Below, piece after piece: positions 533 through 16,332 of a stretch of DNA of 19,786 nucleotides. Under the pieces are notes generated by a model, which saw nothing but the letters and a program-made list of their open reading frames with translations, searched no databases and was not told where the DNA came from. A program made the translations under genes and the position numbers. The DNA is taken from IMG/VR virus record IMGVR_UViG_2721755712_000006; one strand, written 5' to 3'. Position 1 is the stretch's first letter; every line of letters starts with the position of its first letter. Origin of the DNA: a virus (Duplodnaviria; Heunggongvirae; Uroviricota; Caudoviricetes).

Positions 533-553
533 TTTAATGGTGCGATAATAGGA
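533..553. repeat. Imperfect direct repeat of the thrW 3' end (att-type boundary repeat)
   Basis: tttaatggtgcgataatagga here versus tttgaatggtgccgataatagga at 18338..18360 (tRNA 3' end); two single-base differences. Confidence 0.6.
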
Positions 554-612
554 ACAAAACAAACAATAAAAATACATTGATATATAAAGACATTTTCCAG
601 TTACATCTTTGG

Positions 613-637
613 AGATACCCCCAAAAGTACCCCCAAA
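613..637. repeat. Putative integrase arm-type site, left-end copy
   Basis: gatacccccaaaagtacccccaaac closely matches aatacccccataagtacccccat at 18209..18230, same orientation, each just inside an att core copy. Confidence 0.35.
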
Positions 638-895
638 CAATTTTCTCTCACCACCATTTGCACATAAAGCAGCCATGTACAACTGGTAGTTGAACAGGCG
701 GGTAGACCGTTCGTTCAGTAAATACCTGATATTTCCGCCAACGAGAAATTGCGTTGGCTGGCAGAGTGCAAATTTGCACGATAACCTAACCCATTGATTC
801 TTTCGAAAACCTGCAATGCAGGAAGCCGGATAACACCATTTTTATAGCTCCGATCCCTTCAAAGTGAGGGGTAATTTGCCAAAACAGAGAGAGCA

Positions 896-1183
896 TTACT
901 GTCTCTGGCAATCTTTATCGCGATAACGCCTGAAATACCCTCTCGCTTCCTCATCCATACCAAGAGCCGAATGAGTCCGCTTAACTGCCTGTCTTAAATC
1001 TCCGAATCTGTCTGTAGTTGCTGGTGGGCGTGCCGCCTTACGGATACATTCAGAGCGTCTGTTTGCTGCATGTTCACGTTCTTTATCGCCATCTGCCAGC
1101 ATCATGACTTCTGCCCATCGTGCGGCAGCTCTCCGGTATAGCCCTTTTGACTCCAGTTCTTCAGCTTTCCTGTCCCTTATCAT
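896..1183 (-). CDS. Small PerC-family-like regulator (phage/island-associated)
   Basis: 95-aa ORF; N-terminal IRDRKAEELESKGLYRRAAARWAEVM resembles PerC/Pch-type small regulators as I recall them; basic C-terminus. Not verified by search. Confidence 0.4.
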   Translation of the reverse strand: MIRDRKAEELESKGLYRRAAARWAEVMMLADGDKEREHAANRRSECIRKAARPPATTDRFGDLRQAVKRTHSALGMDEEARGYFRRYRDKDCQRQ

Positions 1184-1219
1184 TTCTGCCTCTCAGATTA
1201 TATAGATAAGCAAAAAGGT

Positions 1220-1340
1220 GTTGGTTCAGTTGGTTCAGTTGGTTCAATTTGTAAAGATCGTTGTTTTTATTGTGTTTTTTCTGAAATATTGAACCAACAT
1301 CAACTCATTTTGAACCAACACAGCCCAGCTCTGAACCAAC
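1220..1340. repeat. Iteron cluster A (crr/ori-like): 3 tandem GTTGGTTCA plus 3 inverted TGAACCAAC at 21-bp spacing
   Basis: GTTGGTTCA at 1220..1228, 1229..1237, 1238..1246; TGAACCAAC at 1290..1298, 1311..1319, 1332..1340. Confidence 0.7.
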
Positions 1341-1394
1341 AACACAGCGATAGCTTTGTGATTGGTCCGTTATTTTCTGGCTGATATTTGAGCG

Positions 1395-1425
1395 TATAAC
1401 AGTGTTATACAGTGGTATACTGTAT
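1395..1425 (+). promoter_or_regulatory. Operator-like repeats upstream of the 1443 ORF
   Basis: Tandem TATAACAGTG / TTATACAGTG followed by inverted repeat ATACAG-N7-CTGTAT, just upstream of the start codon. Confidence 0.3.
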
Positions 1426-1442
1426 GGATATTACTCACTGAT

Positions 1443-1883
1443 ATGGTCTTTGCAATGAGCAAATCTAATCTGGTCGCGTTCCGCATCCCATCTGAATTGC
1501 AGGATGAGTTTAATCGGTCTGTTCTCGCTTCTGGAGGGGATAAAACCTCCTGGCTTGTTGATGCGATTCGCATGAAGCTGGGACAGCCGGAAAAGTCTAT
1601 TGATTCACGAATGCTTGGGCTGGTGGAGCGCATGGAAAAAGCCGCTGCGTCGCTTATTGCCGGAAAGCCGAACATCCCACCAAAGCCATATAACGAAACG
1701 GCAGTTATAAAGATCATTGCCGATACCATCCGACAGGGATTTGATAATGGGCGTGTGATAGCGGAACGGCTCAATGAAGCAGGCTACCAAACAAAAGCTG
1801 GTAAAGCGTGGGATAAAGACATTTACAGCGCGTGGAAGCGTCAGGGTAACAATATTAAAAGAATCAATACGCTGCTTCAGTAA
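1443..1883 (+). CDS. Hypothetical DNA-binding protein with N-terminal ribbon-helix-helix-like segment
   Basis: 146-aa ORF (alternative ATG at 1455). N-terminus NLVAFRIPSELQDEFNRSV...WLVDAIRMKL has an RHH (CopG/Arc-like) pattern; C-terminal LNEAGYQTKAGKAWDKDIYSAWKR resembles a recombinase-type DNA-binding helix. No clear SD. Confidence 0.5.
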   Translation: MVFAMSKSNLVAFRIPSELQDEFNRSVLASGGDKTSWLVDAIRMKLGQPEKSIDSRMLGLVERMEKAAASLIAGKPNIPPKPYNETAVIKIIADTIRQGFDNGRVIAERLNEAGYQTKAGKAWDKDIYSAWKRQGNNIKRINTLLQ

Positions 1884-1912
1884 TTGATCAGTGTATAAAT
1901 GATATTTATCGC

Positions 1913-2890
1913 TCAATCGCTCCCTTTCCGCCCTTCAGCTACAGGGTCGTTGTCGGCGATAACAAAACCTAAGTCCTGAGAGAATCTCTCTCGTGGGAAT
2001 CCTTTAGCAGGTAAACCCATTGAATCATATCCACATCCGGGAACATTTGGTTTAGAGTCAATAAGGTCTGCAATTTGCCGAAGCCATGTTGATCCCGGAC
2101 CAAGTCGTTTAACTAAGTACCAGATAATACAGATCGCGCTAAAAATCCTCTCGCAACTCTCTGGATGGAGATTAAGTCCGTCAAAGTATTCATTATCCGG
2201 TACTGGAACTCGGGGATGCTTTCTATTCCATATTCTGGAATGGTGAGCGCAACGATTCCTTATGAGATTAAGGCACTTCAACCATTTTGCAAATGTCTGC
2301 TTATTATCAATGCCAAAACGACGTATAATTTTCCCCTGCATATGACCATTAAGCATCGCATAATATTTAGACATCTGACCAAAATCCCAGGTCTCCACCG
2401 CCACCCAAAATGGAATCTCCTTGCCTTGGCTTCGATGCCATTCAATACAGTCATCTCTGCTTTCGTCTAATTTTACTTTTTGCTTATACACCCAATGCTC
2501 GAAGGCAGATGAGAATTTTGGATTAATGTATTTTGATGACATGTAGGCAAGTGGATCATTGCGACCAACCTCATGCGCGATGACTGAACGAACATGAATC
2601 TCTATTCTTTCGATAGCATCAATCATCAAAAGACGCAGTTTTTTGTCAAAAAGATATAGATCGTACGTCTTCTCGAAACTGGTACCAGCAAGAAATCGGT
2701 CTGTTCTGTACGAAAGACCTTTATCTGTTGTCGCAATAATTCTTGATGGGTACCAAAAACCTGACAATCGATAATATCCAACCTGCGACAGCTTACGTAT
2801 CGCACGATTTCGATCATTGATAATCATGCCACGTTCAAGTAGCAATCCTAGCAATTCGTGATAGTCCTTATGAGGCTTTGCGGCAATCAT
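1913..2890 (-). CDS. Abi_2 family abortive infection protein (AbiD/AbiF-like)
   Basis: Contains the hallmark NRCAHHSRIWN motif plus YYRLSGFWYP near the N-terminus. ORF track starts at a GTG at 2935; ATG at 2890 (MIAAKPHKDYHELL...) fits family N-termini better. Neither start has a good SD. Confidence 0.7.
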   Translation of the reverse strand: MIAAKPHKDYHELLGLLLERGMIINDRNRAIRKLSQVGYYRLSGFWYPSRIIATTDKGLSYRTDRFLAGTSFEKTYDLYLFDKKLRLLMIDAIERIEIHVRSVIAHEVGRNDPLAYMSSKYINPKFSSAFEHWVYKQKVKLDESRDDCIEWHRSQGKEIPFWVAVETWDFGQMSKYYAMLNGHMQGKIIRRFGIDNKQTFAKWLKCLNLIRNRCAHHSRIWNRKHPRVPVPDNEYFDGLNLHPESCERIFSAICIIWYLVKRLGPGSTWLRQIADLIDSKPNVPGCGYDSMGLPAKGFPRERFSQDLGFVIADNDPVAEGRKGSD

Positions 2891-2986
2891 AGTGGCGAAA
2901 CAAAAGATAATAAAAGGCCCGACCGTGAAACTCACATGCCTGAAATCGGCGGCGGAGAAACAGAGGATCGGGCTCGGTTGCCTGTA

Positions 2987-3014
2987 ACTCTATCCGAAGT
3001 TATCCACATGTCAA
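2987..3014 (-). promoter_or_regulatory. Candidate sigma70 promoter for the Abi gene
   Basis: On the minus strand TTGACA (rc of 3009..3014), 16-nt spacer, TAGAGT (rc of 2987..2992), upstream of the Abi start. Confidence 0.25.
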
Positions 3015-3060
3015 TGCACAGTTACTTAGGAAACTAACATAGATACTATCATCACTCACG

Positions 3061-3083
3061 AAAAACCACTATATGTGGTTTTT
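3061..3083. terminator. Hairpin with flanking A/T runs (possible bidirectional intrinsic terminator)
   Basis: aaaaaccac-tatat-gtggttttt perfect 9-bp stem, followed by tattcat on the plus strand. Confidence 0.3.
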
Positions 3084-3358
3084 ATTCATATCGTTATCCA
3101 CTACAGGCTGTGTCAATAACTTTTACCTATTAATTGGGTAATTTCTACATTTTCCTATGCTGGCTAGTTTCTCTACTGAAAAGTTGGCACTCCTTAATCG
3201 CTTTTCGGTTAATACTATCGGTCTTCATATTGCCAGCAGCATACGCCATCCGATAATTTCGATGCTACGCGCGCGTACTTGTCGCAAAATATCAGGCAAA
3301 GGCCAGATTCAGAACGTCGTGATAACCACCAGCACAACATGAGATGTCATGTAACACG

Positions 3359-3366
3359 ATTTATCA
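3359..3366. repeat. IS1 target site duplication, left copy (ATTTATCA)
   Basis: Identical 8-mer directly abuts both IS1 ends (3359..3366 and 4135..4142). Confidence 0.7.
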
Positions 3367-3421
3367 GGTGATGCTGCCAACTTACTGATTTAGTGTATGA
3401 TGGTGTTTTTGAGGTGCTCCA

Positions 3422-3697
3422 GTGGCTTCTGTTTCTATCAGCTGTCCCTCCTGTTCAGCTACTGACGGGGTGGTGCGTAACGGCAAAAGCACCGCCGGAC
3501 ATCAGCGCTATCTCTGCTCTCACTGCCGTAAAACATGGCAACTGCAGTTCACTTACACCGCTTCTCAACCCGGTACGCACCAGAAAATCATTGATATGGC
3601 CATGAATGGCGTTGGATGCCGGGCAACTGCCCGCATTATGGGCGTTGGCCTCAACACGGTTTTACGTCACTTAAAAAACTCAGGCCGCAGTCGGTAA
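3422..3697 (+). CDS. insA: IS1 InsA
   Basis: 91-aa product [43 protein letters not shown]... matches IS1 InsA. Confidence 0.9.
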
Positions 3698-4119
3698 CCT
3701 CGCGCATACAACCGGGCAGTGATGTGATTGTCTGCGCGGAAATGGACGAACAGTGGGGCTACGTCGGTGCTAAATCACGTCAGCGCTGGCTGTTTTACGC
3801 GTATGACAGGATACGGAGGACAGTTGTGGCGCACGTTTTCGGTGAACGCACTCTGGCCACACTGGCGCGTCTTCTGAGCCTGCTGTCGGCCTTTGAGGTC
3901 GTGGTATGGATGACGGATGGCTGGCCGCTGTATGAATCACGCCTGAAGGGAAAGCTGCACGTTATCAGCAAGCGTTACACTCAGCGCATTGAGCGACATA
4001 ATCTGAATCTGAGACAACATCTGGCAAGGCTGGGACGGAAGTCACTGTCGTTCTCAAAATCGGTGGAGCTGCATGACAAGGTCATCGGGCATTATCTGAA
4101 CATAAAACACTATCAGTAA
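3616..4119 (+). CDS. insB: IS1 InsB (transposase InsAB' by -1 frameshift)
   Basis: 167-aa product [27 protein letters not shown]... matches IS1 InsB with several substitutions relative to the canonical sequence as I remember it. Confidence 0.85.
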
Positions 4120-4134
4120 GTTGGAGTCACTACC

Positions 4135-4142
4135 ATTTATCA
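4135..4142. repeat. IS1 target site duplication, right copy (ATTTATCA)
   Basis: See left copy. Confidence 0.7.
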
Positions 4143-4535
4143 CATCAGATACATGTGATTGGTGTACCCGCATAAAACATCGTCATAGCGCGTCCTGTGC
4201 GCATATACGCCGATAATCAACACATCACCACCACTCTGTCTCGTGTAGAGAACAGTTTCATGGTATCCCCCGCCATCGTGTGCGTACTGGTCGGACGTAG
4301 TTGCAAAATTTTTGCAACTGATACCCCTCGCGCGCGTACTGGTCACGAAATTGGTGTTTTGCTGTGGCAGTGATATCAGAAAAATCTTCCTGTTTCACAT
4401 AAAGCGGATATGCGCGTACTGTAACGGCCCCATCAACGGGGATCGGATTTGAAATCCCGACCCAAGCTATGTACCAAATGCCATGTCTTGGATATATGAT
4501 GATTGCCATTCTAAACAACGCTAAAGGGGGTTGGT

Positions 4536-5150
4536 GTGAGCAGAAAAGATACTAAAGAATTGCTAACTATCTGCATGGTGTACTTTTCAATTTATTTTTG
4601 TGCATACATGGTAGTCCCAGATGAGTTTGAACATGGCAGTATTATTTATTCCATAACATTCTATTTTTTAGAGCTAACACCAATTTTGGCTATCCTTTTG
4701 GCAATACATATTTATTTTTCCTTAAAAAAAGAATCGACTAATTGGGAGAAGGTATGGAGAGACAGAGGATTTCTAACATCACCTAAAGATGATGCATATG
4801 AGAGTGATTTTTCTGACTTTATAACAAACTACTACTCCAGCGAACAATTCAAAAATAGACTGTCTGATGTTTGGGAAACAGCAATGTATTCCATAGGGAT
4901 TATATTATTGATACTTACTGGTATCGCTCAATATGTTTTTAACATTGACTTATCATTAAATCCTGAAAATTTAATATCGCCATTGATTTTTGGTGAGATA
5001 TTGATCTTCTCATTCGGAATTTTCTTGAGTGTTGTTCTCTGCTCATTATGCAAACTACTGACTAACAGGTATCCAGGTGAAGCAAGGAGAGCAAGAAAGG
5101 CAAATCCATATTATCTTTTATTTCCTAATGGAGACAGCAGAGATATCTAA
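4536..5150 (+). CDS. AT-rich integral membrane protein (about 4 predicted TM helices), unknown function
   Basis: GTG start preceded by AAAGGGGG SD. Hydrophobic stretches near residues 10-25, 40-60, 115-135, 147-170 (by eye). Roughly 30% GC against ~50% neighbours. Convergent with the 701-aa gene; stops 18 bp apart. Confidence 0.6.
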   Translation: MSRKDTKELLTICMVYFSIYFCAYMVVPDEFEHGSIIYSITFYFLELTPILAILLAIHIYFSLKKESTNWEKVWRDRGFLTSPKDDAYESDFSDFITNYYSSEQFKNRLSDVWETAMYSIGIILLILTGIAQYVFNIDLSLNPENLISPLIFGEILIFSFGIFLSVVLCSLCKLLTNRYPGEARRARKANPYYLLFPNGDSRDI

Positions 5151-5168
5151 GCCATCCATGGCTACCAG

Positions 5169-7274
5169 TTATTGAGCTTCTTTTTGTGATGCCTGTGCGA
5201 CTCTGGTGAGCGATTGTGTGACCGTACTGATCGCTCTGTCATATGCTGTGCTACCTTTTGGCGTATTTGCCAGACGTAACAAGGCATTTCGTATAACAGG
5301 GCTTTCGTATGCCTTCGCTGCTCCGCCTACGGCACCAGCAGCAGGAACAACAAACGCAGCCGTTTTTAGCATCCCCGCTAATACTGCTGCGTTTATGATG
5401 CCACCACCAACTAACAATCCATAAAGCTGCTGACCATTTAAGTTTTGAACGTTCGCTTTTGCCGCGTGTCTTGTATCGTTGAGGTATTTAATAACGCCGT
5501 CCAGTTCCTTTCCATGTACGCCTTTAAAGAAAGTTGCTGATTGCTTCCTGTTCCGGTGTAACGCATTAATAAACTTCTCAACACTGATATTTCCAGACGG
5601 ATCAGTCGCCTTATCTACAGCATTCTGAACTATGGCTGCTCGTGCGTTTTGCCTACCATTGTCATCCAGAAGCCTGTAAAGCTGAGAACGTTCTGATGGG
5701 CTTTGGCTAAAAACGAGTTTTGTTACATCCTCAGGCGTGGCCTTGCCGCTGGCTATTGCCTTTTGAACGCGCGTTCTTCCCATCATGTCATTGAATTTAG
5801 ACCATGAGCGATCAACCCTTGCCATATTAATGGCTTCGTCTGCTCCAAGATTTTTGGCTACGGCTTTTTTCATATCCGCCGTATATGCCTTGTAGATAAT
5901 ATCGCTGGCTTTCTGGAGCGTATCTTTATCAACAGTGTCAGATGACGCCATAAATCGCTTTCGAAGATCGGTTCTGTTTTCCCTCGCCAGACGCAGGTCA
6001 TTTGGTCCGCTGGTGATATCGTCTTTAAATTGCTGCAAGACTTTTACCGCGGCTCTATCCTGAGATTTGCCCGGGCGGCTTAACACGGCAATCTGATTGT
6101 CGATAGCTTTTACCGTGTTTGAGAGATCGACAGGGGTATCCCCCATAGCGTCAATTATGCGGTTATATCGCTTTCCTGCTGCCTCAATGAATTTTTGTTG
6201 CCCTTTAGTCGCAGATTCATAAAGCTGTTTATCAGAAATGCCACCCAGACCATCGCTAAATGTTCTGACTAAATTTTCTCGTGCTTGTTGTTGATTCAGC
6301 CGATTCTTACCGGTTCCAAAAAAAGGAACTCTTTCGCCTAATGTCTGAGCCTGACTCTGCATAAAGGTTTTATCTTTCAGCATGTCACTGGTCATTAACG
6401 GCAGATTTCTTTCCGATGCAAAGTCGACAGCAGCCTTTGCTTCAGGCGACATATCACCACGAACAGCCCTCGAAACCGCACTCGCTGTATTTTCCAGCCC
6501 CTTACCAATACCACCAATGCCAGCAGAAATTACCGTTTGTAACGGATCAATATCTTCTCCACCAGCAAGGCTGGTGGCTCCCTGTAGTGCTAAATCTGTA
6601 GCTGCTGATTTTCCTATGGCACTAAGCACCGTTCCAGCCCTGCCCGCTGGTGTAAACGCCAACGCATTAGCAAGAAACGAGGTCAGGTCTTGCGGTGATA
6701 AACCCGGCTTGTTCAGGGCATAATCACCTGATGGCAGAGAAACGATAGTATTCCCCTTCTCATCCTGCCTTAATGTCGCCCCCATTCCCTGAAGAATCTT
6801 TTCCTGAGACGCGTCAGAGCCGAAAAGTTGAGACCATCCAGCCTTTAGGGCATCCATGCTTAGTGAGTTCAATTCTGGGGCAGAGGCGACATTTTGCAGT
6901 CTCTCCATCTCTGGAGTCATTCGGCTTTCGCCTGTTATAGCATCGCGCATCGCAGCCCCAAGACTGGCTCCCTGTTCTGCTGAACGCTCAAGCCCCTCTC
7001 TTTGCTGAGTAGCTAACTTTGCATACCCTGACGCAAGAGAATTATCAGATGATGTATGTTGAATATTTTGAGTTGCTGATTGGGATCGGTCTATTTCATT
7101 CGTTGATGGTAGTGGATAGGCAGCATAAAAAGCCTGCTTAGCCTGCTCTACACTTTCTCCGGCTTGCGGGGCCACGACTTCATTGAAGTATTGCTCCTGA
7201 GCCTGCGCTTTTTGTTCTGGTGCTAACGCCTGATACTGTGGAGAGGCGATAACATCTTTCCATGCTTTAGCCAT
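5169..7274 (-). CDS. Large hypothetical protein (701 aa), Ala/Gln/Gly/Ser-rich helical, C-terminal Gly/Ala-rich hydrophobic segment
   Basis: Long ORF; ATG overlaps the stop of the upstream gene (TAATG); GGGGTG SD. Hydrophobic segment LYGLLVGGGIINAAVLAGMLKTAAFVVPAAGAVGGAAKAY near residues 617-656. No family recognised. Confidence 0.7.
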   Translation of the reverse strand: MAKAWKDVIASPQYQALAPEQKAQAQEQYFNEVVAPQAGESVEQAKQAFYAAYPLPSTNEIDRSQSATQNIQHTSSDNSLASGYAKLATQQREGLERSAEQGASLGAAMRDAITGESRMTPEMERLQNVASAPELNSLSMDALKAGWSQLFGSDASQEKILQGMGATLRQDEKGNTIVSLPSGDYALNKPGLSPQDLTSFLANALAFTPAGRAGTVLSAIGKSAATDLALQGATSLAGGEDIDPLQTVISAGIGGIGKGLENTASAVSRAVRGDMSPEAKAAVDFASERNLPLMTSDMLKDKTFMQSQAQTLGERVPFFGTGKNRLNQQQARENLVRTFSDGLGGISDKQLYESATKGQQKFIEAAGKRYNRIIDAMGDTPVDLSNTVKAIDNQIAVLSRPGKSQDRAAVKVLQQFKDDITSGPNDLRLARENRTDLRKRFMASSDTVDKDTLQKASDIIYKAYTADMKKAVAKNLGADEAINMARVDRSWSKFNDMMGRTRVQKAIASGKATPEDVTKLVFSQSPSERSQLYRLLDDNGRQNARAAIVQNAVDKATDPSGNISVEKFINALHRNRKQSATFFKGVHGKELDGVIKYLNDTRHAAKANVQNLNGQQLYGLLVGGGIINAAVLAGMLKTAAFVVPAAGAVGGAAKAYESPVIRNALLRLANTPKGSTAYDRAISTVTQSLTRVAQASQKEAQ

Positions 7275-8740
7275 TAATCACCCCATAGTGAAGAAAAGTT
7301 ACTGCTGGCTGCTGGCTGTGATACCTGCTCAGATTGCGGCAATGTCTGCGACGAAGAAGCAGTTCCTCTGTCAACTGCTGAAATAACCCGCAAAGCATCA
7401 TAAGTTCGACCAGAAGCAGCTTTCAGCGAATTGAACTGGTTTTCCATCTTCCGGCGCTTGGTATCAATGGTTTTTGTGGAATCACCAGGCTGAGGGAAAT
7501 ACATTTGATAATATTTGGACATTTCAGCTGGTAGGATAGATGCCCCTGTTTCCTGACGGAGTATTGCCATTATTGCGTCATTAGCATTAACAACGTATTG
7601 CTGCTCTGCTGGGCTGAGCGTTAAGTTAGCCAGCGTCCCATTACCCAAAGCATTATTAATGATCGCCACTCGCTGTGGGCTAAGCTGGTCTTTCAGTGTA
7701 TCTATTGAATCAAGAGCATCCCTAACCCTGTATGCAAATCCAGCAGCTTTTTTAGCCCCTTCTGGCGACTTTTCCATGATCTTTTGGGCTGTTGGCAAAG
7801 CTATTGGACGAAACCCATCTCCAGATATTGGCTGGTTTAGTTTTCCCTGCTCTTCACTTCCGTCTGTGTAGTATTTTGTGACAGTGCCATCATCGTTTTC
7901 TCTAACACTCATTAATTTTTTGGCGTTTGTATTAATTCCAGCCGCTGCCGCAAATGCCGCCGCCCCCTCTGGATCCGCCTTTAACATTTGAGCGTACTGA
8001 TTGTAATTCTGCATTGCTGCTGTTGGTGCATATGCTGACGTTAACGCATTTGCTCGGCTAATATCCTGCCCTCTCGCCTGAAGTGCTTCGCCAGCCTGAT
8101 TGCTGCGGATTGTCTCTGCCAACTTGCCACGCTCAATATCCCGACCTTCCATTTGATCTTTGATATCGAAATACTTCTCATGACCGAGAGAAAACAGCGC
8201 CAGATTACCTGCGAAATGCTGGAAGCCCTGCGGGTCATTAACCTGCATTTCAGCAATAGTTTCTGGAGGGATACCTAAACGACGCATCTCCTGCTCATTA
8301 TCCATCATGAACCTGCCAAATGCGCCCTGACCAAGCGATGAGGCTACCTGTGCTTTGAGCGCCAGATTGCCATAATCATCCCTTTGAGCATCATCGACAT
8401 AACTCATCCCTTTACGGACTTCCTCAAACTCTTCTGGGAATGCTGTAATAAGATTACGCATCTGCTCCCTGTCACCGGACGCATAAGCATCTGCATAAGC
8501 TTTCTGGAATGCCGCTTTACGCTCCTGCTGTTGCTGCTGCTTATAAATATCAGCAACGCCAGCCAGACCACGAAGACCTGTCAGAGCAACGTTATTTGCA
8601 CCTGAGCGAGCCAGTTCATTGTTTTCGCGGATCAGACCAAGCGTTGCGTTAATGTCGCTTGCCTTTGGCGCATTCTCATTTTGCGTACCGATGCCAGCCA
8701 GAAAACCACCAGAATTAATACCCTGTTGCCACGTAGCCAT
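7274..8740 (-). CDS. Large hypothetical protein (~488 aa from ATG at 8740; 492 aa from GTG at 8752), low-complexity Ala/Gln-rich
   Basis: Long ORF translationally coupled to the 701-aa gene; poly-Gln run and Ala-rich tracts; no catalytic motif recognised. Confidence 0.7.
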   Translation of the reverse strand: MATWQQGINSGGFLAGIGTQNENAPKASDINATLGLIRENNELARSGANNVALTGLRGLAGVADIYKQQQQQERKAAFQKAYADAYASGDREQMRNLITAFPEEFEEVRKGMSYVDDAQRDDYGNLALKAQVASSLGQGAFGRFMMDNEQEMRRLGIPPETIAEMQVNDPQGFQHFAGNLALFSLGHEKYFDIKDQMEGRDIERGKLAETIRSNQAGEALQARGQDISRANALTSAYAPTAAMQNYNQYAQMLKADPEGAAAFAAAAGINTNAKKLMSVRENDDGTVTKYYTDGSEEQGKLNQPISGDGFRPIALPTAQKIMEKSPEGAKKAAGFAYRVRDALDSIDTLKDQLSPQRVAIINNALGNGTLANLTLSPAEQQYVVNANDAIMAILRQETGASILPAEMSKYYQMYFPQPGDSTKTIDTKRRKMENQFNSLKAASGRTYDALRVISAVDRGTASSSQTLPQSEQVSQPAASSNFSSLWGD

Positions 8741-8758
8741 TGATTTACCCACGTCCAG

Positions 8759-8917
8759 TTAAAGTGTAAGCCAGCGCCTTATCCATTAATCCCCGAGCAA
8801 TTTCGTGGATCGTTGGCGCAACTCCTACCTCTGATTTTTTACGCTGCTCCTCCTGAATTTTCTTTATCGCTTCCATTTGCTTCTCACTTATCAATACTGG
8901 CTTTACTGAAATAGCCA
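8759..8917 (-). CDS. Small protein (52 aa), possibly ribbon-helix-helix DNA-binding; first gene of the cargo operon
   Basis: Not in the ORF track (under 60 aa). ATG at 8917 with strong SD AAGGGGG; product MAISVKPVLISEKQMEAIKKIQEEQRKKSEVGVAPTIHEIARGLMDKALAYT; stop 6 nt before the next gene's GTG. Confidence 0.45.
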
Positions 8918-9011
8918 TAACGCCCCCTTAGAACTGTATAAAACAACAGTCATTATAGTTTCATAAAACGCAACATTCATCATTGTGATTGCAAAATATG
9001 AAACAAATAGC

Positions 9012-9044
9012 ACAAAAAAATGCCACCGTTCAGTAGCTGGTGGC
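9012..9044 (-). terminator. Intrinsic terminator for the 152-aa gene
   Basis: On the minus strand: GCCACC-11 nt loop-GGTGGC (rc of 9022..9044) followed by a T7 run (rc of 9014..9020). Confidence 0.5.
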
Positions 9045-9098
9045 ATCGTTCTGTATGTCAGGTTTTGACAGTTTTTTTATGGACTCTAAAAACTATAT

Positions 9099-9557
9099 TT
9101 ATGGAGTCGCATTACTCTTCATGGCGTGAGCTTTCCTGTTCTCTCTTTGTTCCTGGTTCCATGGATAAGTGTAATTGCCACCAGCAAAGACCATATTGAT
9201 TTTGTGAGGAACCATTAAAGCGATATCAGCACTCATGTCACTGAATGAAACACAGTGCAGACGTTCAAGCCATTTGTATGCTGCTGCCGCTTCTCCCCAC
9301 AAATTAATCCCTGCAAGTTCAACAATATCTCTGATGGAGCAGATATCAACCATCCCGTTAACGCCTGTAAAACGGCGTTTAAAGTCGCCAAGATACTTTC
9401 TGAAAAGAGTTGCTTTCATTGGTTCAGAAAGGTCTATGTATGGGAACACAACCACATCAAGCAGCATCTCCCTTCTGTTGTTCATCGGTATTACAGATGG
9501 CAAATCGGATACTTTGCCAAATACATGATGAAAAGCCTTTGCGATTATCTTCATCAT
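9099..9557 (-). CDS. Hypothetical protein (~152 aa), orphan cargo gene next to the iteron array
   Basis: ORF MMKIIAKAFHHVFGKVSDLP...; GGGAGA SD upstream of tandem ATGs; own terminator downstream. No family recognised. Confidence 0.5.
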   Translation of the reverse strand: MMKIIAKAFHHVFGKVSDLPSVIPMNNRREMLLDVVVFPYIDLSEPMKATLFRKYLGDFKRRFTGVNGMVDICSIRDIVELAGINLWGEAAAAYKWLERLHCVSFSDMSADIALMVPHKINMVFAGGNYTYPWNQEQRENRKAHAMKSNATP

Positions 9558-9643
9558 CAATCTCCCACTGAAACCAGTGATGTGGTGTTCAGATTTCGTA
9601 AAACACTCTCTAATGCCAGCCAGATGTTGTGCTCATCAATTCA

Positions 9644-9754
9644 GTCACGTTGTGTTGGTTCAAAATGCCGTGTTGTTGGTTCAGTGTTGGTTCAATAAAA
9701 AGAATAAAATCCTTATAAAACAATACTCTTTACAAATTGAACCAACTGAACCAA
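9644..9754. repeat. Iteron cluster B (putative replication origin downstream of the primase gene)
   Basis: GTTGGTTCA at 9644..9652, 9665..9673, 9676..9684; three tandem TGAACCAAC at 9728..9754. Segment 9717..9761 is the exact reverse complement of 1213..1257. Confidence 0.7.
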
Positions 9755-9789
9755 CTGAACCAACACCTTTTCTACGCACATGAAGAAGC

Positions 9790-12546
9790 TCATTCTTCAG
9801 ATGAGTTGTAATCTCCTGGCTGGTAATTGAGTACATAAACGTTTATTTGTCGTCCCTGAATACGTGGTGATTTTCTTTGGTATCCACGACCGCTGTTTGG
9901 TGGGGTTAGCATCCCGGCTTTTTTCAACACTTCAGCAAACTGTTTTGCGTTGAAACCACATGCGATCTCCTTTTCAAATGTGGCCGGGAATGTGTAGAAA
10001 ATCATTGGGCTTTCGTCATGTTCTCCACGCTGACGGTATCCGGCTAAATCTTTGATGGGCAAATCTGCCGGGCTGTATGGAAATGGTGCAAAACGGCTAA
10101 GCCCATAGGCATTAAGAAATGCCTCCGTTTGTTCAATAATCTGCTGATGCTCTTTGTTACCTGTGCCGAACTCGCGCAACCATGCGTTATAGCTGTGCTG
10201 TATCGCATCACGGCATGTCTGAGCATCCCAGCCTGTTACAACCTCGCCTAACAACAATGCGGCCTCCAGAATGGCAAATCGCGCGGCTACACGGTGAACC
10301 TGCTCACCATAATCGGATGGGATCAGGCTTCTCCATCTGCTTTCGCAGTCACGAACAGTTTTAATAGCCTGTTGCTGGTGGTCTGCCAGCCATTTAATCC
10401 ACTCACGCCCGGACGCGCCGTGGTGATGCTGGTAAGCGTCTTTCAGTGCGTCTGCGTGCTGTTTTCCGTTCTGGTAATCGTGAAAGCGTACTGCTTTACT
10501 CAACGGAATATTCAGCAGTCGCACCATTTGCCCGGCTTTGGTTTTTCGCCCGGAAGTAGCGATAAATGTTTCTAAATCCATTTCTCCGGTGCTGATTGCC
10601 ACTGTACGCCAGCGTTTTAGATCCCGGTTTCCACCATCTTTAGCGCCTTGCAGTTTCCCTACACCGTTAAATAACGCATAGGCAGACTGTGAAACACTGA
10701 CAGGATCAGCGCCCTGACCAACTTCATCAAGCGGCATTAGTCCGTCATTGTGGGCGGCAGCTTCATTTGCCAGCCCCAGCGCGGTTCCGTACCACGTCAG
10801 CCGCAGTAAATCAGGGTTGCCGTATAAGCTGCTCGCCACGTTTGCCGTGGTGGTCTTACCTGCGCTCGACTGCTCATAGAAATGAATGCCGAACCCGTCA
10901 GCGCCCACCAGCCCAATCAATGGCGCTGCCAGTGCTGCGCCGATCCCGGTCATCATTGAATAGTTACCAAAGGCCAGACGCGCCACGTTATCACGCCAGC
11001 TTTTCGCGCTCCCTGAGACGGTATATCCGGCTGCGGCTGAGCTTCTCCCGCTGAACAGCACAGGATTTTCAGGTGTTCCGATGATTTCCCCATCAGGCAT
11101 GATGTACGCTCCGCATTGCCAGCCAGTGGCATGAGCAACACGCCACAATTCACGAGAGCCACTGCGTTGTAGCCAGTCTGCCAGTATTGCTCTGAGGCTG
11201 CTTTTGGTCGTGACATTTACCCCACCAGCTTTAAGTGTGCGCCATCCTTCACGTTCACCAATATCAGCCAGTGGAATGGCAGCGGTTGTCGGCGTTTCAG
11301 AACCAAACGACAGCCAGCGAAGAATGAGATACTGGTCTTTATCGTCTCTGCCAGTACCGATAACGCTTAACGGAGAACATAACCAGCTTTCGTTATTGAT
11401 GATTTCTCCACTCTGGCTGTCAGCTCTCGGAGATACCCAATAAATACCATCCTCGCGGCTTTCTATTCTTGGTTTCAGTGGGTCGGTATCCATAACCTTA
11501 AAATCGCTTCCCTCAATGGTCTGTGGCTCCTGTTTCACGCCATTACCCTGTGGTTGGTACATTGACTTATTGAACGCTTCTGTGGCGCATTTAATGCCGT
11601 GTTTTTGGTGGTAATCATTCCAGTCTGCTTTGTGATCTGTCGGGGGTAATGCCACCCATCCAGAAACAGATAAAGCTGCCTTTTCTGCTGCTATTCTCCC
11701 CGTGTTTTGTCTTCCTTCGCTGTGGTCGTTATCCGCAGCAATGATGATTTGTGCTGAAGGAAATTTATCCCGCAGTACCTGGGCGACATATAACAGGTTC
11801 CCGGCATCAATCGCCGCCACTGTCAGCGCCTCTGGACGAATTAAATGGGCAGATAATGCCGTTGCCAGCCCTTCTGCGATTAAGATGCTCTGTGTTGTTT
11901 CTGGTGCGTTTATGGCGTGATATGCCCCCCGCTTTGCTGAACCTGTCAGGAGTCTTTTTTCACCATGTGAGGTAATAGTCTGTGCTGCTGTTACTGCGCC
12001 GGATTTATCCACCAGCGCCAGCAACAGAGATCCATCGGGCAACACGGGGAATGTAAAATCACCTACCCCTTTCGCAACCAGATAATCAGATTTGCCGTTT
12101 ACAGCCTTTCTGCGCATGTCATCAAACTGACGGGAAAACGTATCCCGTCTTTGTTGTTCGTCCTTCTCTGCCCTTTTCAGGCGCTCCTGTTCGCGTCGCT
12201 GGCGCTCGGTTTCCAGTTGTTCCCGTTTCTGGCTGGTGGCTTCTGGTGTTTCCGTTGTCCGGTAATCAATACCCAGAACATCAGCGGCAAGAAGCGCCGC
12301 CTCTGTTGTGTCGCAGTTATTTACGCGTTTAATTAAATCCAGCCCATCACCAGCGCCGCACTGATTACAGATGAAGCTACCGCGCCCGTTGTCATCGAAC
12401 CGGAATCGATCTTTGCCCCCACATGCAGGGCAGGGAGCATGACGGCGCGGAGAGTCAGGGACATTTATGTTCAGGCAGCCCAGCACATGAGGCCAGTTGT
12501 TTTCAGACGCACTGATAACCTGACGGATAAGATCAATGTTTCGCAT
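9790..12546 (-). CDS. P4 alpha-like primase-helicase (Zn ribbon, TOPRIM, P-loop NTPase)
   Basis: 918 aa. Cys4 ribbon CPACGG...FICNQCG; TOPRIM-like IIIAADNDH with upstream ILIAEGLATALS; Walker A SSAGKTTT. Confidence 0.9.
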   Translation of the reverse strand: MRNIDLIRQVISASENNWPHVLGCLNINVPDSPRRHAPCPACGGKDRFRFDDNGRGSFICNQCGAGDGLDLIKRVNNCDTTEAALLAADVLGIDYRTTETPEATSQKREQLETERQRREQERLKRAEKDEQQRRDTFSRQFDDMRRKAVNGKSDYLVAKGVGDFTFPVLPDGSLLLALVDKSGAVTAAQTITSHGEKRLLTGSAKRGAYHAINAPETTQSILIAEGLATALSAHLIRPEALTVAAIDAGNLLYVAQVLRDKFPSAQIIIAADNDHSEGRQNTGRIAAEKAALSVSGWVALPPTDHKADWNDYHQKHGIKCATEAFNKSMYQPQGNGVKQEPQTIEGSDFKVMDTDPLKPRIESREDGIYWVSPRADSQSGEIINNESWLCSPLSVIGTGRDDKDQYLILRWLSFGSETPTTAAIPLADIGEREGWRTLKAGGVNVTTKSSLRAILADWLQRSGSRELWRVAHATGWQCGAYIMPDGEIIGTPENPVLFSGRSSAAAGYTVSGSAKSWRDNVARLAFGNYSMMTGIGAALAAPLIGLVGADGFGIHFYEQSSAGKTTTANVASSLYGNPDLLRLTWYGTALGLANEAAAHNDGLMPLDEVGQGADPVSVSQSAYALFNGVGKLQGAKDGGNRDLKRWRTVAISTGEMDLETFIATSGRKTKAGQMVRLLNIPLSKAVRFHDYQNGKQHADALKDAYQHHHGASGREWIKWLADHQQQAIKTVRDCESRWRSLIPSDYGEQVHRVAARFAILEAALLLGEVVTGWDAQTCRDAIQHSYNAWLREFGTGNKEHQQIIEQTEAFLNAYGLSRFAPFPYSPADLPIKDLAGYRQRGEHDESPMIFYTFPATFEKEIACGFNAKQFAEVLKKAGMLTPPNSGRGYQRKSPRIQGRQINVYVLNYQPGDYNSSEE

Positions 12547-12558
12547 TCTGGCCCCCGT

Positions 12559-13161
12559 TTAGTGCGTCACTGGTGCTTCTGGGATGCCGTTTTCGTTTAG
12601 TTCGGCAATAAAGCTGTTGTGAAGATCGGCAAGCACTTCTCGCCCAAACGAAGTGAGTGTTCCCTGTTCGACATCGAACATGTTGCTGTAAAAAATGATG
12701 GCATTCTTTGTTCCGACATCAACACCATATTTCTCGATCATTGCGCCCTCAATGTTGTTTGCCATAGCGAGGCGCTCTGCTACTGGATACAGCGGCATGG
12801 CGACGATGCCATTGGAATAAACAGAAACCACGGAATGATTGCCACTGTCATCAATAATGCTGACGGTGCCGTTTCCCTTTCTCATTTCATTGATGAATGC
12901 TGTTGCTATCAGCCAGCGCCACATAATCACGTGATGCTGTGATGTGTAATCGAAATATCCCTGGTTGCCGCCACTGGCAATAGCGAGATGTATAAACATG
13001 CCTTCATCTGGTTTATCGTCATAATCCCCGGCATCCAGACGATTTACGGCATCAATATATGAGACGGTCTCAACGCGTTCTGTCATGCCATCGTTGCTGC
13101 GGTGCATGATGTTTACGCCGTCAGGCGTTGCTTCTGCATGGAAGGTTAAGAAATTATTCAT
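12559..13161 (-). CDS. Hypothetical protein (~200 aa) immediately upstream of the primase
   Basis: ATG at 13161 (MNNFLTFHAEATPDG...) with GAGG SD, overlapping the stop of the upstream gene by 8 nt; the ORF track's longer 235-aa form begins inside the upstream gene. Confidence 0.55.
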   Translation of the reverse strand: MNNFLTFHAEATPDGVNIMHRSNDGMTERVETVSYIDAVNRLDAGDYDDKPDEGMFIHLAIASGGNQGYFDYTSQHHVIMWRWLIATAFINEMRKGNGTVSIIDDSGNHSVVSVYSNGIVAMPLYPVAERLAMANNIEGAMIEKYGVDVGTKNAIIFYSNMFDVEQGTLTSFGREVLADLHNSFIAELNENGIPEAPVTH

Positions 13162-13375
13162 GTTTCGCCTCGCCTGAATGATTCTGTAACTCATATTTGC
13201 CCAACAATTCGTCTGCTTCCTGAATAGCTTCTGGTACGCCATTGAGCAGTGACATAACCGCGCCAATCATTAACTTGTCTCTGTTGCTGGGGCTGGCCCC
13301 TTCAAGCCAGAACCCTAAAACAGTCTGAACCTGTTCGATGCGACATTGCGCTTCAATGAGCTGGATGTTGGTCAT
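13154..13375 (-). CDS. Small hypothetical protein (73 aa)
   Basis: ORF in an overlapping-stop/start chain (ATGA overlap at 13372..13375). Confidence 0.45.
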   Translation of the reverse strand: MTNIQLIEAQCRIEQVQTVLGFWLEGASPSNRDKLMIGAVMSLLNGVPEAIQEADELLGKYELQNHSGEAKHE

Positions 13376-13635
13376 TTCGCACTCTCCACATCGATTAAAC
13401 TGATATCTATCAGGGAGGTAACTTTTTGTAGCCAGCTATTGATTACTGTCGCCTGTTCCCCTCCCACCGAGGGAATAATCTCATTCATCACATGAACCAG
13501 ACCTGTGCGCGCTCTGGTAAGCCGTTCAGTCGCGCAATCTGCGGGAGTGAATGTGTCTGGATATGGCTCTTCGCGCCCCAGCAATGATTCAATTTCCAGC
13601 TCACACGGATGACGATAAATTAAGTTGATATTCAT
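13372..13635 (-). CDS. Small hypothetical protein (87 aa)
   Basis: ORF in the same coupled chain (ATGA overlap at 13632..13635). Confidence 0.45.
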   Translation of the reverse strand: MNINLIYRHPCELEIESLLGREEPYPDTFTPADCATERLTRARTGLVHVMNEIIPSVGGEQATVINSWLQKVTSLIDISLIDVESAK

Positions 13636-13826
13636 TTTTCACCCCCAAGAATTACCAGCTCGGCACGGGCATCGTTAACCAAAGATGAGCACGCTTTAAT
13701 CGCATCCACGACATCAGCAGCGTCCATTTCTTCAGCCGAAAGACTGACAGCAACCAGGACAGCCGCTGCTTGCTCGATTAATTGAAGTGCGGACGTAAGG
13801 CGAGGGGTATTAATTGAGTTATTCAT
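13632..13826 (-). CDS. Small hypothetical protein (64 aa)
   Basis: ORF in the same coupled chain; overlaps upstream gene by 8 nt. Confidence 0.4.
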   Translation of the reverse strand: MNNSINTPRLTSALQLIEQAAAVLVAVSLSAEEMDAADVVDAIKACSSLVNDARAELVILGGEK

Positions 13827-14037
13827 TGGTTGCCCCCGTTTTTACTGGCATTTCGCCACCTTCCAGCAGGAAATGAACGTCACGAACGGCGAGATCCAAT
13901 ATCGCGAGTAACGCCTTCAGTCTTTCGTCTCGTGAGGGAGAGTTGCTCACCAGAATGTCGTTAATCACTTCTGTCAGTGTGATGATCTGGCTTGTGCGTT
14001 CGAGGGGATCCATATGCACATCGTAGGTTTTAATCAT
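13819..14037 (-). CDS. Small hypothetical protein (72 aa)
   Basis: ATG at 14037 (MIKTYDVHMDPLER...) with GGAGGTGG SD; this is the 3' part of the long 13819..14886 track ORF. Confidence 0.4.
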   Translation of the reverse strand: MIKTYDVHMDPLERTSQIITLTEVINDILVSNSPSRDERLKALLAILDLAVRDVHFLLEGGEMPVKTGATNE

Positions 14038-14224
14038 GTGCCACCTCCATGCGGATACGACCAGCAAAAAAGCAGACGTGATCGCGCACCAGAGAACGGC
14101 GAGCATCGCGTTCAGACTCGGCAGCAATATGATGAATTTTGGCGGTAATTGTCGGGCAATCGCGGCGAACTGCGGCGATAATCCAGATAAATTGCGGTTT
14201 TTGGGTAGGGGTAGTAGCCAGCAT
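14030..14224 (-). CDS. Small hypothetical protein (64 aa), first ORF after the structured leader
   Basis: ATG at 14224 (MLATTPTQKPQF...) preceded by GGAGG, which lies inside a predicted stem. Confidence 0.35.
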   Translation of the reverse strand: MLATTPTQKPQFIWIIAAVRRDCPTITAKIHHIAAESERDARRSLVRDHVCFFAGRIRMEVAHD

Positions 14225-14470
14225 GTGGCAGCCTCCATTCGATAGCATGTAACGCTACCACCGGAAACGCCAATTTCGCTGGTGGTAGCCCAGACAGGGT
14301 TGGCGTAACCGGCTCGAATGGATACCGGCGCTTCCGAAGAAGCCCCTGCCTGAGCCACCATTGATTGACAAAGGCGCTGGATTATACACCAACGCCCAAA
14401 AAATGGGTGAGTCAGACCTACGACATAAAAAAAGACGCTCGGCGCGTCATATGTCGCCATTCGATTTACC
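14225..14470 (-). promoter_or_regulatory. Structured non-coding leader with three mutually complementary 8-9 nt elements (P4 immunity-like topology)
   Basis: Plus-strand TCCATTCGA at 14234..14242, its reverse complement TCGAATGGA at 14314..14322, and a direct copy CCATTCGAT at 14457..14465; nested inner inverted repeat GCTACCACC (14254..14262) / GGTGGTAGC (14281..14289). Confidence 0.35.
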
Positions 14471-14524
14471 AGGACGCCAATCCCGGCACCCGTTTTATGA
14501 GGTGCCTTATAACCATAAACCGTG

Positions 14525-14551
14525 TTGCCGCATAACGGCAAGCTCTTTTTT
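14525..14551 (+). terminator. Hairpin plus T6 on the plus strand (possible terminator or part of the leader structure)
   Basis: ttgccg-cataa-cggcaa, then gctc, then tttttt; no obvious plus-strand gene upstream, so its role is uncertain. Confidence 0.25.
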
Positions 14552-14879
14552 ATGGACTCCGAAAACTCACTATTGGAAGAACCAGAAGCACAGTACATCG
14601 CGCTCATTTCGTTAACGTCACGCGCGTGGACGAATGTTTTTGTGGAGTCACTACACGAGCAGAACAGGTCATCTACGACCAGAAATTCTCTGGCGCAGCC
14701 GCTGACCTTCTCAACGCTAACATCATCGACCGTGATTTCTGACATAGTTAAGGCATCCGCTCCTACCACCAGCAAATGATAAACTTTGCTTGTATCTGCT
14801 GTATTAATGCCTGACTTTGCTGTCATATTGCTGGATTTTGGCGACATGCCAGCCAGTGAAAATGTCTTCTTCTGGGCGG

Positions 14880-15062
14880 TTAGCATTTGTTAACCTCCGC
14901 GAACTCCTTCATGAAACGTGCCAGCGGTTGTACGCATGGCGATTGATACCCGTCGCGATAAAACGTCACTCGGTTGTGAGACACGCTTTCGACAGTAACG
15001 AGTGCTCCGTGGGCATCTTTGTAGCGTTTTTGAGGTTGTGGTGTTCCTGTCGGCTTAAACAT
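14880..15062 (-). CDS. Small hypothetical protein (60 aa)
   Basis: ATG at 15062 (MFKPTGTPQPQKRYKDAHG...) with GGAGG SD 6 nt upstream; 8-nt overlap with the antirepressor gene stop. Confidence 0.4.
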   Translation of the reverse strand: MFKPTGTPQPQKRYKDAHGALVTVESVSHNRVTFYRDGYQSPCVQPLARFMKEFAEVNKC

Positions 15063-15888
15063 GGACCGCCTCCAGACGCTTAGCGAGCCAGCGTTGCGAC
15101 AGGCGGGTGAGTTCTCCTTTGCGCTGCTCATATTCCATGCCCATATCAATTAACGTGATATTGGTGCTTTCGAGATATGAGAGGTGCTCAAGCTGTTCTG
15201 CGTTCATATGGTCGCGAGGTTCGCCAGAATAGCCATTTATCCGCGCCCACTGCTTAGCAGTTAGCCCACCAAGAACGATACGAGAAATCATATTGCTCTC
15301 GTTTGTGTAGTGGTGTTGCTGCGTCGTTTTCCCCATCTCGGCACGGGCCATGTTCAGCGCATCGCACATTGGCTTAAAGTTGTTTGCGGCACTGATACGG
15401 GCTTTTAGCTGGCGACGATAGCGGGCGGCGATTTCAGGCACGCTACGCTGTAATTCTTTCTCGCACTGGATGAAATAACGGCGGATAGCGCGACCCTGAT
15501 CATTGCGTTCGATCATTGCCAGTTCTTTCGCCATTCCGACACTTAACAGATAGTCTTTGCCGGGTCTGCCAGAGTGCTTAATCTTGCTGTAAGCCGCGCC
15601 ATTCGGGCTTTTCCCCAAATTTGGGGAAATTGTTTTATGGACTGAGTAATCGTGCCCAATGGTGAAGTCATATTCAGAGATGCGATCAGTGATCCATGTA
15701 GAGAAGTCTTTTCCCACGCCCAACGCTTTGTGTAACGCTTTTGCGCTAACAATATTGGTTTCACGCCCACCTATATGACCAGGAATAACCGGGACAATTG
15801 CGGCAAATTCATTACCGTTAATTGTGCCCAGAGAGGCGTTCAGATGAGGGGCAGCCTCAGAAATTAATCTGCTTTTTTCGATGTTCAT
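15055..15888 (-). CDS. AntA/AntB-type phage antirepressor-like protein
   Basis: 277 aa; segments SAKALHKALGVGKDFSTWITDRISEYDF and KDYLLSVGMAKELAMIERNDQGRAIRRYFIQCEKEL resemble the AntA domain as I recall it; GGAG SD. Confidence 0.65.
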   Translation of the reverse strand: MNIEKSRLISEAAPHLNASLGTINGNEFAAIVPVIPGHIGGRETNIVSAKALHKALGVGKDFSTWITDRISEYDFTIGHDYSVHKTISPNLGKSPNGAAYSKIKHSGRPGKDYLLSVGMAKELAMIERNDQGRAIRRYFIQCEKELQRSVPEIAARYRRQLKARISAANNFKPMCDALNMARAEMGKTTQQHHYTNESNMISRIVLGGLTAKQWARINGYSGEPRDHMNAEQLEHLSYLESTNITLIDMGMEYEQRKGELTRLSQRWLAKRLEAVHV

Positions 15889-15900
15889 TTTCAGTCTCCG

Positions 15901-16332
15901 TTAGGCGGCGTTAAACGCGTCCGGGTAGAGTTTCAGAATGTCGGCAATTTCCTGCTGAGAAAGTCCGTTGTGATCATTTATGTTCGCAAGATGGTTAATA
16001 TGAGTGATCACTTTCAGAACATCACCACGGCAGGAGAAACGGTAGCGAAGGTGTGTTCCGATACCATCAGGATTCTTTTCGTCGATACGCTCCAGAGTGA
16101 TTCCGAGCTGGCGTTCTAACTCTGTTGCATAGTTACGACCAGAAGACAGACGGCAGTAGCGAAGAATGTCATTTTCTGTCCATCCCTCTATACCAGTACG
16201 CAGCATATAGACTCGGGCACGATGCTTTTTCGGCGTGCGCTTTGGTGCTTGAAGGGATTTTGTCAGGGGCGTAACATCAGATACGCGAATATCTGAATTA
16301 GCCGCCTGTAATGGGCGGTTTTTCTTTTCCAT
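15901..16332 (-). CDS. Hypothetical protein (143 aa), translationally coupled to alpA
   Basis: ATG overlaps the alpA stop (ATGA); basic N-terminus; no family recognised. Confidence 0.5.
   Translation of the reverse strand: MEKKNRPLQAANSDIRVSDVTPLTKSLQAPKRTPKKHRARVYMLRTGIEGWTENDILRYCRLSSGRNYATELERQLGITLERIDEKNPDGIGTHLRYRFSCRGDVLKVITHINHLANINDHNGLSQQEIADILKLYPDAFNAA

Follow-up and report, generated by a model that had tools for sequence, protein, structure and literature searches.

The SieA superinfection-exclusion proteins of P22-like phages form the family to which the 204-residue protein described here almost certainly belongs, judging from sequence homology. Its gene is located at positions 4536..5150 (+ strand) of a 19,786-nucleotide stretch of DNA, the IMG/VR virus record IMGVR_UViG_2721755712_000006, which as a whole is called the window below. 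The window is chromosomal DNA of Escherichia coli from the proA / tRNA-Thr (thrW) locus. SieA is known to be exclusively an inner-membrane protein, and the only phages whose DNA injection it blocks are P22-like ones (Leavitt et al., mBio 2024, PMC10883804). It is sufficient alone, needs no partner protein and works in E. coli. The SieA of prophage HS1 is 24% identical to that of P22 and excludes the same phages. Type A SieA has three transmembrane (TM) helices, while types B and C have four. The most conserved feature of the family is a motif on the cytoplasmic side, FxRYPxEAxxFNK, and the P22 mutations that escape SieA fall in the C-terminal region of gp16 and in that of gp20. In a P22-like prophage the canonical position of sieA is between gene 16, with which it is convergent, and gene 9. 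The published generalisation assigns the SieAs of E. coli and Salmonella to type A or type B and places every sieA in a P22-like prophage (PMC10883804).

The locus can also be compared with EcCIMP1, a phage-inducible chromosomal island (PICI) of E. coli MP1 whose mobilising helper is Kapi1, a P22-like phage (Pick et al., ISME J 2025, PMC11773190). Helper-induced excision and transfer have been shown for EcCIMP1 with Kapi1, and the att core reported for this island is TCCTATTATC. Superinfection immunity to Kapi1 has been measured for EcCIMP1, and no known defence system was found in it. Its PerC homologue was reported to repress, not to activate, expression from the enterocyte effacement locus (PMC11773190). 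The kind of system discussed here is already known and has recently been characterised; what is new is a divergent lineage of SieA, its residence on a satellite and a candidate mechanism of immunity.

Homology and predicted topology of the 204-residue protein

RefSeq gives an open reading frame (ORF) with identical coordinates and labels it 'hypothetical protein'. In the PHROGs collection the protein has a single match, phrog_7745 'superinfection exclusion SieA-like', with an E value of 4.4e-4. Comparison by BLASTP with the E. coli HS1 SieA gave 34% identity over 118 residues of the C-terminal part (E 2e-9), and with P22 SieA 29% identity over 108 residues (E 8e-8). When the clade of the window protein was aligned by hhalign with 21 SieAs of types A and B, the probability was 98.9% and the E value 1.9e-17 over 129 columns. 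Run exhaustively over 1.84 billion representatives, phmmer returned just 22 proteins at E <= 1e-3. Sequences were retrieved for 20 of these, the remaining two being short or partial. The fragment YSSE..NRxSD is present in all 20, and all of the full-length ones have in addition RYPG(E/Q)A or a sequence close to it.

Seven residues are invariant across a 15-member family alignment. Three of them, N107, R108 and D111, belong to the fragment YSSExFxNRxSD just before TM3, and four, R178, P180, G181 and A183, to the fragment RYPGEA just after TM4. Residues R178, Y179, P180, E182, A183 and K188 of the window protein agree with the published motif FxRYPxEAxxFNK.

Four hydrophobic helices had been noticed in the initial annotation of the sequence, and hydropathy places them at approximately residues 9-27, 39-57, 116-137 and 148-170. 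The AlphaFold2 model (predicted local distance difference test score, pLDDT, 74; predicted template modelling score, pTM, 0.63) consists of four long helices, spanning residues 3-26, 34-66, 105-135 and 149-176, which agree with these segments. Positive-inside charge counts point to a topology with both termini in the cytoplasm. The predicted layout is a cytoplasmic loop of about 50 residues that ends in YSSExFxNRxSD, with a cytoplasmic RYPGEA fragment at the C-terminus. The four-helix arrangement is like that of types B and C, and the conserved motif is on the predicted cytoplasmic side.

Profile searches with local Pfam, NCBIfam and PADLOC gave only noise for the 204-residue protein. The silence of the local Pfam copy is uninformative, since it does not contain the newer family PF26849 and misses P22 SieA too. 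A search of the PDB sequences with the family profile found nothing significant and no solved relative. By tblastn against 50,697 phage records there was no match even at E 10, and no phage in this collection has a detectably similar gene. Two scans of the GTDB species-representative genomes, with alignments of the window clade and of types A and B, gave no confirmed locus.

The gene and its convergent neighbor

The 204-residue gene adjoins, and is convergent with, the gene of a 701-residue protein at 5169..7274 (- strand). This large protein belongs to the ejection (DNA transfer) proteins of the P22 gp16 type. PHROG 770 'DNA transfer protein' covers it nearly end to end (E 1.1e-162), BLASTP shows 31% identity with P22 gp16 over 435 residues (E 2e-52), and the identically placed 701-residue genes of other E. 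coli islands carry the precomputed Pfam label Phage_P22_gp16. It is co-operonic with the gene of a P22 gp20-type ejection protein of 492 residues at 7274..8752 (- strand). The latter was assigned by Pfam Inj_translocase (5.5e-84), PHROG 917 (9e-143) and BLASTP with P22 gp20 (E 2e-85), in which the N-terminal 239 residues are 55% identical and the C-terminal part is divergent. Superinfection exclusion was among the alternatives named in the initial annotation, and it gains support from this canonical sieA position together with the homology described above.

The initial annotation also described a C-terminal hydrophobic hairpin in the 701-residue protein. It is real and is found at approximately residues 614-660. 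The escape sites of P22 gp16 could be aligned with this region: G532 corresponds to a conserved residue, G614, and P546 to K637 of the window homologue. Both positions fall inside the glycine-rich hydrophobic hairpin. The closest gp16 of a sequenced phage is that of Escherichia phage N7 (Lederbergvirus), with 67.5% identity, and in N7 the sieA slot is occupied by different small ORFs.

The distance between the two convergent stop codons is 18 bp (5151-5168), as had been annotated, compared with 22 bp in P22, 21 bp in HS1 and 22 bp in a prophage of Citrobacter. An earlier estimate of about 30% guanine plus cytosine (GC) amid DNA of about 50% is roughly right: the GC content of the gene is 33.2% (30.7% at third codon positions), while that of the whole window is 47.3% and those of the two adjacent genes are 47.4-47.5%. 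The lowest sliding-window value, 0.32, occurs at 4601-5000. Similar differences between sieA and gene 16 are found in P22 (33.7 and 49.9%), HS1 (36.3 and 47.1%) and Citrobacter (38.0 and 50.0%), compared with 33.2 and 47.4% in the window. It is characteristic of the sieA family that an AT-rich gene of a membrane protein abuts a large gene.

The start region of the gene is also conserved at the DNA level. The strong Shine-Dalgarno sequence that had been noted, AAAGGGGG, is located at 4523-4530, with the GTG start codon 5 nt further on. The ribosome-binding site and start codon together (4519..4538, + strand), CTAAAGGGGGTTGGTGTG, hardly differ from their counterpart in P22 sieA, CTAAGGAGGTTGGTGTG. 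An 11-mer, TTGAAATCCCG, at 4449..4459 (+ strand) occupies position -87 relative to the window gene and is found again at -84 of HS1 sieA. It is a possible promoter element, as far as can be inferred from the sequence. For HS1 sieA, 106 bp of upstream DNA were enough for function (PMC10883804).

The short palindrome that had been described between the convergent stop codons, AGCCATCCATGGCT, is present, although its position is 5150..5163 and not 5151..5164, one base off. Its first A is the final base of the TAA stop codon of the 204-residue gene. With arms of 5 bp and a loop of 4 nt it forms a weak hairpin, whose fold is not more stable than those of shuffled sequence (z = -1.0). A terminator scan around the gene called none, the palindrome included. 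Both P22 and the Citrobacter prophage have the motif GCCnTCCnTGGC of this palindrome at the same place, in the gap that separates sieA from gene 16. It is common to these three loci despite flanking proteins that are just 17-50% identical, and it does not occur in the prophages of Providencia and Morganella, whose two genes abut. The motif may mark a module junction or an RNA end.

Comparison with the known types of SieA

The P22 protein (type A; SIEA_BPP22, 164 residues) and the window protein share the NRxSD and RYPGEA fragments. Their genes share a convergent gap of about 20 bp to gene 16 and a GC content of about 33% beside ejection-protein genes of about 50%. However, the window protein has about 40 extra residues at the N-terminus, which correspond to the additional TM helix, and about 8 extra residues at the C-terminus. 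The HS1 protein (type B; EcHS_A0321, 212 residues) is similar in length, has four TM helices and likewise comes from E. coli and from the thrW locus, but the two proteins belong to different clades of the tree. The HS1 sieA was located in E. coli HS as a convergent gene of 212 codons after three 'DNA transfer protein' genes. Its place is in a P22-like prophage that is complete, with gene 16 on one side of it and the immI/tailspike region on the other, and P22 sieA likewise belongs to a P22-like prophage, whereas the window gene is found on a satellite island.

In global alignments the window protein is 50% identical to a protein of Citrobacter freundii, 39% to one of Serratia fonticola and 31% to a Providencia/Proteus protein, and these three proteins cluster with it in a neighbor-joining tree. 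A further homology search added proteins of Morganella morganii and Providencia alcalifaciens to the Providencia-type clade. The clade of E. coli, Citrobacter and Serratia is sister to the clade of Providencia, Morganella and Proteus, the two being about one third identical. The latter (the P0006 clade, 195-199 residues) is the nearest named clade, with 31-35% full-length identity and a phmmer E value of 6e-25. It has the same four-helix layout and the same WR/KxRGF and YYSS..NRxSD motifs. From its genus range, length and context, it is probably the published 'type C'. For the genera of the window lineage, Escherichia, Citrobacter and Serratia, either types A and B alone have been reported or the genus is not listed (PMC10883804).

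The genes of the P0006 clade occur at the canonical slot of P22-like prophages, and their host genera are different. The homologues of Providencia and Morganella are within complete P22-like prophages, in the order mnt, an ORF of 111-140 residues, and sieA, which is convergent with gene 16 and adjoins arc, ant and the tailspike gene. The Citrobacter homologue is also found in a true P22-like prophage. Here the gene order is coat, gp4, gp10, needle, gp14, gp7, gp20 (disrupted by an insertion sequence), gp16 and the sieA-like gene, with orf105, mnt, arc, ant, tailspike and int following it. The window gene adjoins and is convergent with a gp16 homologue, yet it lies outside a P22-like prophage. 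The presence of a type-C-related lineage on a PICI satellite contradicts the generalisation that sieA is confined to such prophages.

The island carrying the gene

Exactly two copies of the att core TCCTATTATC are present in the window (0.04 matches expected). The distal copy is at 544..553 (- strand) and the proximal copy at 18350..18359 (- strand), inside the tRNA-Thr gene (18343-18418). The segment from att to att, 544..18359, is a 17.8-kb island. It contains an integrase (16963-18177), an AlpA-like regulator (16332-16535), a TOPRIM/DUF927 primase (9790-12546) and a PerC-family regulator (896-1183, - strand; Pfam 2.6e-33), together with AntA and Ash; capsid and lysis genes are absent from it. 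The backbone is 96-99% identical to EcCIMP1 at the DNA level over most of its length. Judging from its genes, the island is an EcCIMP1-like PICI. As an observation apart, it has P22 ejection-protein genes and no further virion genes.

Both EcCIMP1 and the window island are located at the tRNA-Thr site next to proA and contain P22-type ejection-protein genes and a PerC-family gene. The homology of the two islands picks up again at window positions 4135-4463, and therefore the block of gp20, gp16 and sieA (approximately 4464-8769) is a swapped module of P22-like origin. The cassette of EcCIMP1 consists of gp14, gp7, gp20, a 906-residue transglycosylase-type protein and a 232-residue lipoprotein, with no sieA-like gene, while the window island has gp20, gp16 and sieA only, plus AbiD and IS1. 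The gene of the lipoprotein (EcCIMP1 12632-13330, - strand; lipobox LLAGC) occupies the slot after the gp16-type gene in place of sieA. It is a candidate for the immunity of EcCIMP1 to Kapi1.

The E. coli contexts examined were eight places from an assembly collection and three annotated RefSeq regions. All are satellite-type islands and none is a full prophage. Their backbone consists of an integrase, an AlpA-like regulator, the AntA antirepressor, Ash, small ORFs and a TOPRIM primase (DUF927 or DUF5906). This is followed by an ejection cassette alone, either gp14, gp7, gp20 and gp16 or, in the window, a 57-residue ORF (8745..8918, - strand), gp20 and gp16, and then by the convergent sieA-like gene. 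In sister islands, a 53-residue ORF is found at the position of the 57-residue one, and gp14 (DUF2824) and gp7 come before gp20. In the window island gp14 and gp7 have been lost, and the 57-residue ORF is fused upstream of gp20. A variable cargo slot comes next, which contains AbiD in the window and elsewhere an M78 peptidase with a 125-residue ORF, or ORFs of 318 and 145 residues. An ORF of 146-151 residues follows the cargo slot in most islands, and a PerC-family gene closes the set. The islands are integrated at thrW or near yicG/ligB.

The gene was found at 95% identity or more in 102 of 5,426 complete E. coli genomes, and 101 of the 102 copies cover at least 80% of the length. All 102 are chromosomal and annotated 'hypothetical protein'. 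A name and a testable function can in this way be proposed for a protein of about 2% of complete E. coli genomes, which represents a divergent SieA lineage overlooked by PADLOC, NCBIfam and the local Pfam copy. Twelve of the twelve sequenced copies examined are intact and represent four alleles. These differ at five synonymous and three conservative nonsynonymous sites, with a rough dN/dS, based on small numbers, of 0.16, and the sampled alleles are apparently under purifying selection.

Proposed function and alternative explanations

The homology described above allows us to propose that the 204-residue protein probably blocks DNA injection by P22-like phages. The comparison of HS1 with P22 suggests, by analogy, that the function can survive divergence of this order within the SieA family. 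The protein would be made constitutively from the integrated element, by analogy with the SieAs of P22 and HS1, and would reside in the inner membrane, with the loop and the RYPGEA tail facing the cytoplasm. It could interfere there with the gp20/gp16 conduit of incoming P22-like virions, in which case no DNA would be delivered across the inner membrane. The gene would have arrived in a P22-like 'gp20-gp16-sieA' module that recombined into an EcCIMP1-like PICI at thrW, and exclusion would be conferred by a satellite and not by a prophage. EcCIMP1 is mobilised by the P22-like Kapi1, and therefore the likely target would be phages of the kind that mobilise such islands. Rival satellite particles packaged by these phages would also be excluded. 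As a candidate mechanism, an injection block at the inner membrane could explain how satellites make a cell immune to P22-like helpers.

Several observations weigh against this proposal. The global identity of the window protein to the two tested SieAs is just 17% (P22) and 18% (HS1), and the F and FN positions of the conserved motif are replaced (T176, A186 and R187). The precomputed label PF26849, which is found on the P22 and HS1 SieA clusters, is not recorded for those of the window protein. Structure searches were uninformative: Foldseek comparison of the AlphaFold2 model with BFVD and PDB found nothing significant. Helical-bundle models are not discriminating in such searches. At the DNA level, a consensus promoter scan around the gene found nothing convincing and no good match to sigma-70, and an IS1 element of 768 bp (3367-4134, with an 8-bp target duplication ATTTATCA) is inserted about 400 bp upstream. 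The upstream mnt-ORF context of the prophages is gone. In addition, EcCIMP1, which is the sole island of the family with measured superinfection immunity, has no sieA-like gene. We considered crediting the immunity of EcCIMP1 to the 204-residue gene and rejected this, since EcCIMP1 does not have it.

The homologue could have taken on a shifted role in the satellite, for example in modulating the island's own gp20/gp16 or the entry of the helper and not in general exclusion, or it could be a passenger of the ejection-protein module. In favor of such a role are the occurrence of the gene in PICI-type islands, never a full prophage, in every E. coli context examined, its constant association with island-borne gp20/gp16, the module boundary near 4464, which shows that sieA, gp20 and gp16 entered as one block, and the strong divergence from the tested SieAs. 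However, all of the copies examined are intact and under apparent purifying selection, all family-invariant residues are kept, and SieA proteins act without a partner (PMC10883804). We regard this explanation as unlikely. It is still less likely, in fact very improbable, that the protein serves an abortive-infection or Kiwa-like defence as its membrane effector or sensor, possibly acting with the nearby AbiD. A small protein with four TM helices at the accessory end of a mobile island would suit such a role, and an Abi_2/AbiD gene is indeed present at 1913-2935, in a region that is a variable cargo slot. These two possibilities, raised in the initial annotation, found no support, because PADLOC applied to the 204-residue protein and its neighbors matched AbiD alone. 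No KwaB-like (DUF4868) ORF is adjacent, most islands with the gene have other cargo in place of AbiD, and the constant neighbor is gp16 and not a defence gene, while the homology to SieA is significant.

The layout had also been read as that of a pore-forming bacteriocin, encoded by the 701-residue gene, and its immunity protein. The convergent arrangement and the C-terminal hydrophobic hairpin are what such a pair would show. This reading fails because the 701-residue protein is of the gp16 type, in an operon with gp20, and neither is colicin-like. No colicin match was found in Pfam for either of them, nor any colicin-immunity family match for the 204-residue protein in Pfam (E <= 10) or NCBIfam (E <= 1), and searches of Pfam, NCBIfam and PADLOC gave no colicin, pyocin or immunity family. 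Moreover, the same gene pair occurs within P22-like virion-gene clusters of Citrobacter, Providencia and Morganella. The bacteriocin reading is contradicted by these results, and we assign it practically no probability. It was close in spirit, since a small inner-membrane protein is paired with a large membrane-inserting one. The resemblance to pore-forming colicins is a functional analogy without homology, in which a small inner-membrane protein neutralises an incoming membrane-inserting protein. Unlike in the colicin pairs, the large protein here is a virion ejection protein and not a secreted toxin, and the protection would be from phage DNA entry.

A broader suggestion can be made, which is speculative and rather doubtful: E. 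coli PICIs may have taken over a complete module of entry and anti-entry functions from their P22-like helpers. The island gp20 and gp16 (with gp14 and gp7 in sister islands) would then be loaded into helper capsids and set how the satellite crosses the envelope, while the linked divergent SieA would afterwards shut out helper-type phages and rival satellites. Should the island ejection proteins also be matched to evade SieA types, this would amount to a satellite-level arms race over DNA entry. Such a module would also explain how a PICI can confer superinfection immunity like that reported for EcCIMP1. The comparison also brings to attention PICIs that carry P22 ejection-protein genes.

Additional features of the island

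The AbiD gene in the cargo slot of the window (1913-2935, - strand) is an abortive-infection gene of the Abi_2/AbiD type, with E values of 2e-52 in Pfam and 8e-58 for the PADLOC AbiD model. The island of strain F5656C1 is without the IS1 element found in the window. Another difference is a deletion of 2.1 kb (window 14065-16188) in F5656C1, which removes part of the Ash gene, AntA and a 143-residue ORF; the two islands are otherwise 99.9-100% identical.

Rfam matches were obtained for a C4 antisense RNA at 14278-14365 (- strand, 79.5 bits) and for the isrK Hfq-binding RNA at 14428-14505 (- strand, 67.1 bits). Both are located inside the region called as a 355-residue Ash-family ORF, which adjoins the AntA antirepressor. 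The region is a c4-icd-ant-like immunity module of the P1/P7 type on a PICI.

In E. coli HS (1742-45046), two elements are arranged in tandem at thrW, namely prophage HS1, which is P22-like, and a second island that encodes a tyrosine-type integrase. If the second island is PICI-like, this arrangement would let P22-like phages and such islands swap modules.

Two inverted iteron modules of about 120 bp are present in the window at 1213-1340 and 9654-9770. Each has the form AAAAGGT[GTTGGTTCA]x3 ATTTGTAAAGA, an AT-rich spacer and [TGAACCAAC]x3. One copy closely follows the primase gene on its 3' side, and the second is between PerC and the 146-residue ORF. There are 12 exact 9-mers, or 20 with up to one mismatch, compared with 4.7 expected. 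These modules are probably the PICI replication origin and/or binding sites of a regulator.

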